From assembly GCA_046290225.1 (NCBI GenBank), contig JBKAGE010000036.1, positions 96,001 to 160,000 on the forward strand: a DNA stretch of 64,000 nucleotides. The letters run 5' to 3'. Of the stretch, positions 28,347 through 58,952 are shown piece by piece (position 1 is the stretch's first letter; each line of letters opens with the position of its first letter). Both the position numbers and the translations under genes were made by a program. The notes beneath the pieces are model-generated. The model did not search any database, had not been told where the DNA came from, and saw nothing but the letters and a program-made list of their open reading frames with translations. This DNA comes from Bradymonadia bacterium. Lineage in GTDB: Bacteria; Myxococcota_A; Bradymonadia; UBA7976; UBA1532.

Positions 28347-28511
28347 GCTCCGGCGCTGCGGCGGCGTCAGCCGCCGTGACGCCGGCGATCTCCCGCCCAG
28401 ATGCGACCTTTCCGTCCTCGAGGTAGCGCAGCTACCTCTGCGGGTGAAAGCCCGCATCTGGACGAGACCTCACCGACCTCACGACGACTGCCACCACCTC
28501 CGCGCCTCCGC
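28347..28511 (-). repeat. 165-bp rod-hairpin element E1 (folds on the minus strand)
   Basis: Starts 3 nt after the SCP2 TAA; colinear with E2-E4; apex GAGGTAGC-TGC-GCTACCTC on the minus strand. Confidence 0.85.
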
Positions 28512-28725
28512 GGGGCGCGTGCATAGGTGGGTTATGGCTTTGTGGGGCTCTTTGGGGCTTCTGACTGCCGTCCTCTCTGCCAGCTCGTGCGGTACGCTCT
28601 TCCAGCTTTGCAGGACGGTTGTCGTGAGTTTTTTGGCCTTTGAGTGGTGTGCAAAGTCTTCTGAGAGACACACTCACAGCCTCTTCCGAGAGTCTTCAAG
28701 ACCAAACCACGCAGGTCGCAGCCCC

Positions 28726-28890
28726 GCGGAGCGCCGTAGGTGGCGACAGCCGTCGTGAGCGTGGTGAGTTTGCGTGCAGATGCGTTGGAGAAAGCGCAGG
28801 CGTAGCAGCGCTACGCCGAGCATTTTTCCAACGCATCTGTGCGTGAAATCGCCGCACTCATGGCGGCTGGCGCCGCCGGAGGCGCGGAGC
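28726..28890 (+). repeat. 165-bp rod-hairpin element E2 (folds on the plus strand)
   Basis: CAGATGCGTTGGA/TCCAACGCATCTG arms, apex GGCGTAGC-AGC-GCTACGCC, ends GCGGA...CGGAGC. Confidence 0.9.
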
Positions 28891-28964
28891 CCGCTCACGG
28901 CGGCTGGCGCCGCCGGAGGCGCGGAGCCCGCTCATGGCGGCTGGCGCCGCCGGAGGCGCGGAGC
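28891..28964 (+). repeat. Two extra 37-bp tandem copies of the E2 terminus
   Basis: ccgctcaYggcggctggcgccgccggaggcgcggagc at 28891-28927 and 28928-28964, abutting the stop of the minus-strand OMP gene. Confidence 0.92.
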
Positions 28965-29513
28965 TTAAAAGAACACGCCGCCGTAGAACATGAGCTGGTG
29001 GTGGCGGATGTCATCACCACCAAAGTCGCTCTTGGTTTCATTGGTGAGCTGATACTCGTAACGAATCTCAGCGCCCACCTTAACCACCTGCAGATCAAAG
29101 CTGCCCTCCAGGGCGACCGGCAGATACCAGACCATATCTTCCGTCGTACCATCCGGAGCCTCGGTGCTCAGGGCCCAACGGGGCTCCAGACCAGCGCCCA
29201 GGCTGAGGTTCACCAGCGGCAGCGGCAGGAGGCCCACCTTCGCCAGCACGGGGATGCCCAGCCGTGTCTCGTCAGAGTTGAAGGAACGGTACATCAGATC
29301 AGCCTCGACGGTGATCACTGGCAGCTCCAGCACCAACGCGCCGCCGATGGCAAATGGGCTGTAGTCATCGGGCTCGGGGGTACCATCAGGCAAATCGAAG
29401 CTCGAAGTCCCTACCCCAAGCTTGACCCCTTTCTTGATCCCCAGGGCGTTCGCCGAGGTGGCGACGCCCAGCACCAGAGCGGCCATCACAGTCAGGCTCA
29501 ACAGTTTACGCAT
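28965..29513 (-). CDS. Outer-membrane beta-barrel (porin-like) protein
   Basis: Signal peptide (ANA), GVKLGVG, LGIPVLAK, C-terminal YGGVFF; AAGGAG RBS. Confidence 0.75.
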   Translation of the reverse strand: MRKLLSLTVMAALVLGVATSANALGIKKGVKLGVGTSSFDLPDGTPEPDDYSPFAIGGALVLELPVITVEADLMYRSFNSDETRLGIPVLAKVGLLPLPLVNLSLGAGLEPRWALSTEAPDGTTEDMVWYLPVALEGSFDLQVVKVGAEIRYEYQLTNETKSDFGGDDIRHHQLMFYGGVFF

Positions 29514-29779
29514 CGTCGACTCCTTCATTCGGCCGCCGAGAGAGCGGCCCTTGGTGGACACAGATCGGCTCTTACCCCCTGCCCCGCGCCAGCGCAACCT
29601 TGCCACCGGCGTCGCCCGACAGAAACAGCCCTCGCATCTCGGCGTCGTGGGCGCTAACCTGCGCCGCCCGCGAGGACCGTGCCTGTGACATCGACCCGAT
29701 GTCCCGAAGCGCTCACGCGCTCGCGGAAGAGGGTTTCAGACACGGGGCCCCGAATCACCGAACGCCCAAGAGGAGGCGG

Positions 29780-31843
29780 ATGTTCACTGAAGATTTCGTC
29801 ATCGACAACGCCAAGATCACCCTGGAGGCCGGCCATTGGGCTCCACAGGCCCTTGGCGCCGTCGTCGCCCGCCATCAGAAGACCGTGATCCTCGCCGCGG
29901 TGGTGGCCAAACCCAGCACCGCGCAGACCGACTTCCTGCAGCTCACCGTCGACTACCGGGAGCGGACCTCTGCCGTGGGCCGGATCCCGGGCGGCTTTGG
30001 TCGCCGCGAGGGCCGGGCCTCCGAGCGCGAGGTGCTCACCAGCAGGCTCATCGATCGCACGATCCGCGGGCGTTGCCCTGAGGGCCTGCAGGCGGAGATT
30101 CATCTCAGCGTCACCGTCTTCAGCGCTGATCGAGGCACCGATCTCGAGGGCCTCGCCATCACCGCCGCCGGCGCCGCCATGACCCTCTCCGGGTTGCCCA
30201 TGCACGGCCCGGTTGTGGGTCTGAGCATGAGCGCCGGCAAAGGCAAGCTGCACACCTTCGTCGCGGCGCCCAAAGCCGAGCGCCATGATCACGGCCTCGT
30301 AGCCGCCTTCAGCCGTGACGGCCTGCTCATGCTCGAGGGGGGCGGCACGCCCATCTCCGACCTCGAGCTGATGTTGTTGTTGAACCGTGGTGCCGCAGCA
30401 GTGGAGCCCGCCTTCGACGCCATCGAACGCCTCGCCGCCAAGGCCGGCCGCTCTGGCCACTGGACCGTGACGCCTGTGGCCACCGAGGCCCAGCTCGAGG
30501 CATGGGCCGAGCGTCATGGCGGAGACATCCGCGCCGCTCTGAGCCACGCCGACACCCCGACACGCAAACAGGCCTTGTCCAGCCTCAAGGCCGACGCCCT
30601 CGCTGTGGAGGGTGGCCCCAGCGCGATGCAGTGGTCTGCTCTGGTGAAGCACATGATCACCAAGGGCACTCGCAGCGGCCAGCGCATCGGCGGCCGTGGG
30701 GCCCACGAGGTTCGGGCCCTGGGCGCTTCAGTGGGCCAGTTGCCCGCCTGTCACGGCGACGCGCTGTTCACGCGGGGCGAGACCCAGGTCCTCGCCTCTG
30801 CCACCCTCGGCGGCGCTCGTGAAGGGCTGGCCCGAGACGGCGTGCAGCATGGTGGGCACACCCCATTCTTCCTGCACTACAACTTCCCCGACTACGCAGT
30901 GGGTGAGGTCCGCCTGGGCCGCGGCGCTCCCAACCGTCGCGAGACCGGGCATGGTGCCCTCGCCGCCCGCGCCCTGCGCTCACAGCTGCCTGGCGACGCC
31001 TTCCCCATGGCGGTCCGTGTGGTGGCTGACGTGCTCAGCGCCAACGGCTCGTCTTCGATGGCCACCGTCTGCGCCGGCAGCCTCGCCCTCATGGACGCCG
31101 GGGTGCCCCTCACGGCTCCCGTGGCTGGTGTGACGGTGGGCTTCTTCGGTGATATCGAGGACTACACGCTCGTCACCGACTTGCTCGGCGAAGAAGACAG
31201 CGCCGGTCAGATGGATCTGAAGGTCGCAGGGACAACCGACGGGGTCACCGCGCTCCAACTCGACCACGAGCTCAACGGCTTGCCGGTCGAGATCTTCATG
31301 GAGGCGCTGGCAGCCGCTCAGACCGGGCGAGTGCAGATCCTCGAGGCCATGGGCGCCGCTCTGGCGGCCTCGCGAACCACCACCAAGAGCCACGGGCCAG
31401 CCTTCGCCCACATCGCGCTGTCTGCAGAGCAAGCAGCCCAGCTCAACGCTCAGGGCCAGCGTCAGCTCGAGACGATTCGCAGCCAGACCAAGTGTCAGAT
31501 TCAGTTGCTGACCGAGCCCACAGCTGCATGGATCGTGGCAAAGGACCACGACGGGCTGAACAAGGCCATCGAAGGCCTGACGCCGCGCCCTGCTTTGGAG
31601 CAGGGCAAGGTGTACGAGGCCCGCGTGAAGTCGATGCGCCCCTTCGGCGCCATCGTCGAGGTGGATGGTCATGAGGGCCTAGTACACATCTCGGAGCTGG
31701 CCGAGCCACGCCCTGCAGAGGCTACTGATGTGGTGAATGTGGGGGACGCGTGCCCAATCATGGTGATCGGCCATGATGATCGAGGGCGCCCTCGCCTGAG
31801 CCGAAAGGCGGCGCTCGCGGCCAGCGTGCCTCAGGACGATTGA
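29780..31843 (+). CDS. pnp: Polynucleotide phosphorylase-like protein (divergent homologue)
   Basis: LTVDYRER...GRIPGGFGRREGR, SRLIDRTIR, FTRGETQ, HYNFP, RRETGHG, NGSSSMATVC, C-terminal S1 (FGAIVE...GLVHISEL); AGGAGG RBS. Confidence 0.85.
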   Translation: MFTEDFVIDNAKITLEAGHWAPQALGAVVARHQKTVILAAVVAKPSTAQTDFLQLTVDYRERTSAVGRIPGGFGRREGRASEREVLTSRLIDRTIRGRCPEGLQAEIHLSVTVFSADRGTDLEGLAITAAGAAMTLSGLPMHGPVVGLSMSAGKGKLHTFVAAPKAERHDHGLVAAFSRDGLLMLEGGGTPISDLELMLLLNRGAAAVEPAFDAIERLAAKAGRSGHWTVTPVATEAQLEAWAERHGGDIRAALSHADTPTRKQALSSLKADALAVEGGPSAMQWSALVKHMITKGTRSGQRIGGRGAHEVRALGASVGQLPACHGDALFTRGETQVLASATLGGAREGLARDGVQHGGHTPFFLHYNFPDYAVGEVRLGRGAPNRRETGHGALAARALRSQLPGDAFPMAVRVVADVLSANGSSSMATVCAGSLALMDAGVPLTAPVAGVTVGFFGDIEDYTLVTDLLGEEDSAGQMDLKVAGTTDGVTALQLDHELNGLPVEIFMEALAAAQTGRVQILEAMGAALAASRTTTKSHGPAFAHIALSAEQAAQLNAQGQRQLETIRSQTKCQIQLLTEPTAAWIVAKDHDGLNKAIEGLTPRPALEQGKVYEARVKSMRPFGAIVEVDGHEGLVHISELAEPRPAEATDVVNVGDACPIMVIGHDDRGRPRLSRKAALAASVPQDD

Positions 31844-58479: not shown

Positions 58480-58498
58480 GCGGGCCCCACTCAACGAA

Positions 58499-58624
58499 TC
58501 AGTCGTGGCCTTTGTTGATCCAGTTGGAGTTTCGGAAGCGGGACGTTGTCTCGTCGAGTTCGTCTAGATCGGACAACTCAAGATCTGGGTGAAGGCGCGC
58601 CGCCCGTGCCAACAATGTCTTTTC
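58499..58624 (-). pseudogene. Orphan 3' fragment homologous to the end of the adjacent ferredoxin gene
   Basis: [41 protein letters not shown] aligns ungapped to 58952-59077 (27/41 aa identical). Confidence 0.85.
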
Positions 58625-58641
58625 AGCTTTTCGTCGGCGAG

Positions 58642-58724
58642 GGTGGTGGCGGTCATCGTGATGTCGATGAGGCCGTGTGGCAAATGCCTCCGCAGGTATG
58701 GCGGAGAAAGCGCAGGCGCAGCAG
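58642..58724 (+). repeat. Degenerate half (one arm) of the 165-bp element (E5)
   Basis: ggtggtggcggtcatcgtgatgtcgatgagg resembles the E1 arm ggtggtggcagtcgtcgtgaggtcggtgagg; 58703-58724 matches E2 28787-28808 at 21/22. Confidence 0.7.
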
Positions 58725-58787
58725 AGCAAGAACCCCCAGTCCCTAAAAAAAGCCCCCAAAGCCATAGAAATGCCAAGGCCGAGGCCC

Positions 58788-58952
58788 GCGGAGGCGTGGA
58801 GGTTCTGGGGGTCGTCAGCTGAGTGGTGAGTTGGCGCGCAGTCGTGGTGGCAAAAGCGCAGGCGCAGCAGCGCTGCGTCGAGCATTTTGGCGCCGCGAAT
58901 GTGCGCTAAATCGCCGCTCAGATGGCGGCCCACAGAGCCGGAGCGCCGGAGC
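58788..58952 (+). repeat. 165-bp rod-hairpin element E4 (folds on the plus strand)
   Basis: Shares its terminal base with the ferredoxin TAG; apex GGCGCAGC-AGC-GCTGCGTC. Confidence 0.92.

Follow-up and report, generated by a model that had tools for sequence, protein, structure and literature searches.

A family of 165-bp hairpin elements in a Bradymonadia genome folds on the strand antisense to upstream genes and docks at gene boundaries

REPINs, as described in the accessible text of PMC3116915, are length-constrained hairpins with compensatory changes, and a hairpin with a 5′ tail was proposed as their intermediate. According to the accessible part of PMC2229807, YPAL/RU-2 and ERIC elements are about 168 bp long, form a long stem-loop and are co-transcribed with upstream genes, and YPAL lacks TA termini. 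The Gmet_R1001-R1024 'predicted short RNA elements' of Geobacter metallireducens are intergenic multicopy palindromes of 111-116 nt (PMC2700814, accessible part). Here we describe a family of hairpin elements in a Bradymonadia genome (assembly GCA_046290225.1, hereafter G000; 8.58 Mb in 83 contigs) that was recognized from four copies, E1 to E4, in a 64,000-nt stretch of contig JBKAGE010000036.1 (G000:C36:96001-160000, hereafter the window). The strand of the upstream gene whose stop codon precedes an element is called the gene strand, and its complement the antisense strand. The fold that has been kept is on the antisense strand and is weak on the mRNA strand. Each unit consists of a rod, about 165 nt long, and a tail; the end without the tail lies against the nearest functional boundary, and the sites are empty in relatives.

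An earlier note on the window had reported four colinear copies, each beginning with GCTCC at or within 5 nt of a stop codon. Both statements were borne out: after reversing E2 and E4 the alignment was gapless across 165 columns, all of the stem variants quoted in that note were found in the copies, and GCTCC opened every copy past the stop of a gene on its own strand. E1 (28347..28511, + strand), whose stable rod was found on the − strand by folding, begins 3 nt past the stop of an SCP2-domain gene (28020..28343, +; PF02036). E3 (57145..57309, +) begins 5 nt past the stop of an ABC-F ATPase gene (55460..57139, +; PF00005 twice and PF12848), which we take to be ettA-like. The first G of E4 (58788..58952, −) completes the TAG stop of a 4Fe-4S ferredoxin gene identified by Pfam search (58952..59278, −). 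E2 (28726..28890, −) is arranged tail-to-tail with E1 and reaches the stop of its host gene (28965..29606, −) at 0 nt via two 37-nt partial repeats of its docking end (28891..28964, −), the outer of which contacts the stop codon. The label of outer-membrane protein given to this host could not be confirmed; the product has a C-terminal Phe and an export-like appearance, and matched no Pfam family. A promoter scan of the E1-E2 region found none.

Iterated nhmmer searches of G000 returned 117 matches, of which 82 were near full length: 41 of 165 nt, 12 of 167, 11 of 178, six of 180, five of 166, three of 168, two of 179 and one each of 181 and 207. Thus a length of exactly 165 bp holds for E1-E4 and as the mode, and fails family-wide, since the other 41 copies are longer. 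A 13-nt side hairpin is present in most of the longer copies. The family also includes short forms (24-70 bp) in which the docking end is retained, and partial repeats started at base 1 every time and had T-rich pads. The copies were diverse: among 72 with intact ends none were identical, the nearest neighbour was at 92% and the median pair at 67% identity. The end pattern occurred 62 times in G000 and at most five times, the control level, in each of 27 relatives from the same taxonomic family. Blastn against 40 relatives gave four short weak matches, and exact patterns gave 0 and 0 matches in metagenome contigs and a single match, from Streptomyces, in genome contigs. Plasmid and phage collections were matched at chance level only, while viral contigs held 12 tip matches, three of them rod-like by eye. 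At the gathering score only two tRNAs in the window matched Rfam, and the rods at six loci had no match at E values up to 5. A survey that mainly covered open literature revealed no earlier account of the family, of the strand asymmetry or of the docking.

The rod fold proposed in the earlier note was far from chance by folding z-scores (below). None of 500 shuffles matched the real pairing score, and slid registers paired only 31-50%. RNAalifold on 31 chosen copies gave 63 pairs, 47 of them with double changes, and 96.4% of cells were paired. The outer 3-bp stem core took 19 forms among 74 copies and was paired in 71 of them. What that note had not mentioned is the strand. Folding z-scores of −5.2 and −4.1 were obtained for the gene strand, compared with −10.2 and −10.7 for its complement, and the antisense strand outfolded the gene strand in 82/82 copies as RNA and in 81/82 as DNA. 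Positions 1-66 of 39 copies of 165 nt contained 1782 Watson-Crick, 404 purine-purine, 368 G·T, 12 C·A and 8 pyrimidine-pyrimidine cells, such that 772 non-Watson-Crick cells on the antisense strand were G·T or purine-purine versus 20 that were C·A or pyrimidine-pyrimidine. Because the antisense strand folds better and its mismatches are mostly G·T or purine-purine, the structure under selection lies on that strand. The proposal that selection acts on length and structure is supported by pair covariation and by this antisense folding.

Perfect helices were mostly 5-9 bp, and 18 of the 39 165-nt copies had a longest perfect run of 5 bp. On the folding strand the rod ends are GCGGAG ... GGAGC, and GGA/GGA mismatches are conserved at positions 3-5 and, within 11-13, at the outer positions. 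Tips were parsed as 3-nt loops in at least 49/82 copies, and none of those parsed were GNRA or UUCG. Loops of 3 nt at the tip favour DNA over RNA. In E1 the tip module (28415..28443, +; read on the − strand) is an 8-bp stem with a 3-nt loop below a GCA/GA 3x2 loop, and it is common to Geobacter Gmet_R1001-1024 and to families bounded by terminal inverted repeats (TIRs).

Comparison with the Geobacter repeats qualified the statement that these elements belong to no named family: it stood for Rfam and did not stand in that the tip is that of the listed Gmet repeats. The central palindrome named in the accessible part of PMC2700814 is exact in E2 and present as variants in the other copies, and the flanking 3x2 loop motif is as in rows R1003, R1010, R1015 and R1021 (by eye). 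Among the papers searched for this core, one contained it. The Geobacter elements measure 111-116 nt versus 165-181 nt here; since the published alignment may span the core only, we place the present family as a longer variant (PMC2700814). The accessible part of that report contains no analysis of fold, strand, docking or mobility, whereas the elements described here dock by one end, carry a tail and a GGA/GGA base of their own, and have dedicated parasites. Resemblance to the REPIN/RAYT system lies in being non-autonomous long hairpins 3′ of genes that sometimes complete a TAG stop (PMC3116915 and PMC3733652, accessible parts). Unlike REPINs in those descriptions, the 165-bp family lacks a GTAG or CGTC tag and a short conserved REP pair, and no RAYT was found; in contrast to REPs and REPINs, sequence conservation is found at the tip and in loops along the rod. 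The suggestion of a non-autonomous element like a REPIN or a miniature inverted-repeat transposable element (MITE) was nevertheless supported. YPAL/RU-2 and ERIC are alike, by description only, in length, long stem-loop and gene position, whereas the 3-26 bp target duplications of YPAL contrast with none seen here (PMC2229807, accessible part).

Docking was scored with our own gene calls (6145 open reading frames) plus ARAGORN tRNAs. Among 93 GCTCC ends, 67 were at a stop codon (66 within −1 to +7 nt), eight followed a T-tract, five were 2-8 nt upstream of an opposite-strand start codon, two were at tRNA 3′ ends, two at tRNA 5′ ends and nine were unclassed. By eye, these nine comprised three in-frame fusions, two stops, two starts, one terminator and one unexplained end. 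By eye, three copies lay inside gene 3′ ends and supplied the gene's stop. Because one and the same end docks on stops, starts and both ends of tRNAs, docking is independent of the direction of transcription. At docked start codons the terminal GGAG could, judging from its sequence, serve as a Shine-Dalgarno site. In a cluster of eight tRNAs (G000:C37:77086-78826), two inverted copies enclose tRNA-Thr and tRNA-Tyr, and both orientations dock.

The opposite end behaved differently: in 67/69 cases a distance of at least 76 nt separated it from the next gene. Tail and rod were inherited together (Mantel r 0.32, p 0.002), whereas the left flank of the donor was not carried along (Mantel r −0.016, p 0.8), although some pads are recurrent. 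In E1 the tail is G/T-rich (28512..28560, +; distal limit approximate), and unique DNA past the tails had a G+T content of 0.65-0.61 out to 90 nt versus about 0.48 in controls. We rejected the idea that these G/T-rich flanks are relics of inverted partners, as only 8/76 had a reverse-strand match and some of those were the known partner. We likewise rejected a general mechanism in which the 3′ end of the host gene undergoes a long duplication, for which the scored loci gave one clear case.

Comparison of sites indicated that the elements come and go. The spacing between clpS and clpA was −4 to +7 nt in 19/19 relatives (partly read by eye), whereas in G000 these genes are about 770 bp apart with two inverted rods between them. 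This element was seen after the ferredoxin gene in 0/15 relatives. At one site a contig from run X2 held a different element version where G000 has a 69-bp form, and elements occur in both orientations inside operons. No target duplication was seen by eye in the flanks, for which the far limit of the tail is undefined. The best interpretation, which we consider about evenly poised, is that of a REPIN-like element that moves as the folded antisense strand, probably as DNA, and whose fixed end trims the flank back to an essential feature. The element would be copied and recognized as a folded single strand, most likely DNA, by a trans-acting enzyme that may bind the GA-rich loops at the base and tip; by analogy, the closest precedent would be an HUH-type single-strand transposase. 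Insertion of the strand by this enzyme would take place in heavily transcribed regions, and flanking DNA would be lost in events at the fixed end until an essential feature halts them, giving rise to docking. With a weakly folding mRNA strand and perfect helices that are short, the element would cost its host little.

The docking data also bear on a SINE-like (short interspersed nuclear element-like) retro-element, which we regard as rather unlikely. In this model, element RNA would be copied by a reverse transcriptase, such as the resident group II intron's own, and attached through priming or template switching to the 3′ ends of abundant transcripts; recombination would then bring the chimera into the chromosome. 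Such a route would fit a fixed end with a ragged tail, partial repeats that restart at base 1 with T-rich pads, the bias to tRNAs and genes of high codon bias, the lack of replication-strand bias, and a multi-copy group II intron at the element edge. It would also fit contigs from RNA runs that link elements to coding sequence, although such contigs are uninformative on strand and level and may contain DNA. However, the same end docks before starts on the other strand and at tRNA 5′ ends, where there is no RNA 3′ end, and the two tRNA 3′ junctions lack CCA. This docking, together with both orientations in one tRNA cluster, argues against priming at RNA 3′ ends. Moreover, reverse transcriptases did not track the tip module across the five genomes tested, and a retron non-coding region was unlike the element. 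That region belongs to two facing retron-like reverse transcriptases (G000:C79:177700-181000), one of which is preceded by a non-coding region bounded by inverted repeats; an origin from retron multicopy single-stranded DNA was not supported, as there was also no significant model match.

Hosts were strongly biased in codon usage, a proxy for expression. Their median percentile was 0.87, and 31/65 were in the top decile versus 9.4% of 3559 operon-end genes (p ~1e-17). This bias, the G+T-rich DNA beyond the tail and a related rod after rpsN that is kept in two species of another genus would be accommodated by a host-useful signal spread by recombination, which either shields mRNA 3′ ends or, through an antisense C/A-rich leader plus rod, stops transcription into busy genes in the manner of a Rho-type site plus pause. 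There is precedent in the E. coli REPs, which affect translation when within 15 nt of a stop codon (PMC12306157, accessible part). We consider this explanation quite unlikely, because none of the 27 family relatives searched has the end type, the strong fold is off the mRNA strand in most copies, both orientations occur in operons and in the tRNA cluster, and the sites vary between strains and collect parasites. A stand-alone non-coding RNA gene, which had been proposed as another option, is likewise unlikely, as copies come and go, accumulate parasites and have no Rfam match.

The TIR-bounded families provided a further comparison. A covariance model found rods in 7/27 genomes of the taxonomic family, many of them with true TIRs yet the same tip. 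In G000, TIR families with this tip had 16, 4 and 4 copies (by pattern count) of about 160 bp (e.g. C18:18070-18230, C38:274060-274220 and C78:372740-372900), and the largest had 3-bp TNA duplications. Only 3/24 of these copies were within 12 nt of a stop. Since the same tip occurs in undocked TIR families, docking is a property of the ends of the 165-bp family. These sisters, together with T-rich junctions and the stop codons of the hosts (30 TAG, 27 TGA and 26 TAA among 83, versus 81% TGA elsewhere), would favour an ordinary DDE-moved MITE with decayed terminal repeats and TA-containing targets, which in a GC-rich genome are mostly TAA and TAG stops. We find this improbable: the ends are conserved mismatches, GGA opposite GGA, and not decayed TIRs; no duplication was seen by eye; 27 of the 83 hosts end in TGA; and the TIR families are undocked. 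Both the host-useful signal and the decayed DDE MITE explain less than the folded-strand and retro-element readings.

The tip module is widespread. A loose tip pattern was present in 78/102 genomes of the class, many well above the reversed control, and a strict pattern in 25/301 genomes of the phylum (control, 1). One 3.9-Mb genome (G267) had 115 tip copies with near-identical young rods, and there, too, one end occurred as partial repeats and some copies docked at stops; in other genera related rods follow tRNAs and stops. It is possible, although we propose it only tentatively, that the 165-bp family belongs, as one branch, to a cross-phylum superfamily whose members are mobile folded single strands with a conserved tip, are moved by an enzyme class with no known repeat and are directed to boundaries of genes under heavy transcription, while unrelated TIR transposons reuse the rod as a chassis.

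Several observations weigh against movement of a folded strand. The main gap is the mover, as none was found in our searches. The HUH/Y1 partner that had been suggested was not found in G000, which had 0 Y1_Tnp matches (repeats are unassembled there), no Y2_Tnp and no small GIY-YIG gene, only a 625-aa frame. No convincing rod stood beside 20 Y1 loci of family relatives, and a tip match was near one of 40 Y1 loci, beside a gene with different repeats of its own. IS200/IS605 elements favour the lagging template, whereas lagging-strand targeting was rejected here as no leading/lagging bias was seen (22 vs 25; strand assigned for 47/82 copies). The covariation can be inflated by shared descent and by arm-to-arm copying in palindromes, neither of which the controls remove. 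The excess of TAA and TAG (56/83 hosts vs about 19% of genes) is unexplained by erosion, and short native spacers account for part of the docking. Finally, no same-species empty site was found, and flank deletion at insertion is therefore something that we infer rather than observe.

Other enzymes were also considered. Y1, reverse transcriptase and GIY-YIG proteins were rejected as tip-tracking enzymes because they had matches in a genome without the strict tip pattern (G035); Y2 was present in one of five genomes tested. G000 had eight tyrosine recombinase matches. In another genome, a 146-aa Y1 transposase (L225:1040-2190, G045) is flanked by its own long repeats of different sequence, one of them right after its stop.

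Two parasites were associated with the element. A multi-copy group II intron (RF00029; copies at G000 contig ends, e.g. L119:11-93 and L120:4-86) inserts 4 nt past the rod base. Its 5′ ends directly followed the CTCCG end motif in 6/6 cases, one of them on a 15-nt stub, and its 3′ ends were followed by the tail in 7/7. The intron inserted only at the tail junction of the 165-bp element and is assigned to class C by target geometry only; class C introns target DNA hairpins (PMC4424553, accessible part). Because the intron open reading frame is unassembled, mobile enzymes may be missing from the G000 assembly. The second parasite is an insertion sequence (IS) of about 10 copies, with inverted ends of at least 20 nt and a 3-bp duplication, that breaks the assembly at 20 contig ends (e.g. 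L121 and L122). All of its breakpoints, by eye, were inside hairpin tips of this type. Some contig ends, such as the C80 5′ end, have tandem hexamer repeats beside another collapsed element, and these have a 7-nt word in common with the element tail.

Such targeting recalls attC sites. The core sites of attC are RYYYAAC ... GTTRRRY and its folding is strand-specific. The two are alike in a single folding strand, purine-rich mismatches, position after a stop and targeting by group II introns and IS elements. However, inspection found no core sites at the element ends, the intron is in gene orientation, and the hosts are not cassettes but conserved chromosomal genes with empty orthologous sites, which speaks against the attC-like site entertained in the earlier note.

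Behind the E4 tail we found the decayed second half of a further copy (58638..58728, −; model positions 79-157, 16.7 bits), with 0 matches in 20 shuffled sets at that search. A diverged second copy of the ferredoxin 3′ end (58499-58642, −; 62% amino-acid identity and many synonymous changes) lies behind E4 and adjoins an SMR gene and two open reading frames without a Pfam match. This duplicate region looks like foreign DNA joined at the repeat remnant.

The novel findings are the long form, docking at start codons, the expression and stop-codon biases, the two parasites and, as an internal control, TIR sisters that do not dock. These findings bear on the old open questions of why palindromic repeats crowd stop codons, which strand matters and what moves them. 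One genome holds a natural control, in which two kinds of element have one hairpin tip and only one kind docks, and docking on starts and tRNA 5′ ends separates DNA-level models from those based on RNA priming. If the mover is of a new kind, its identification could provide an insertion system that is targeted to gene boundaries and leaves the genes intact.

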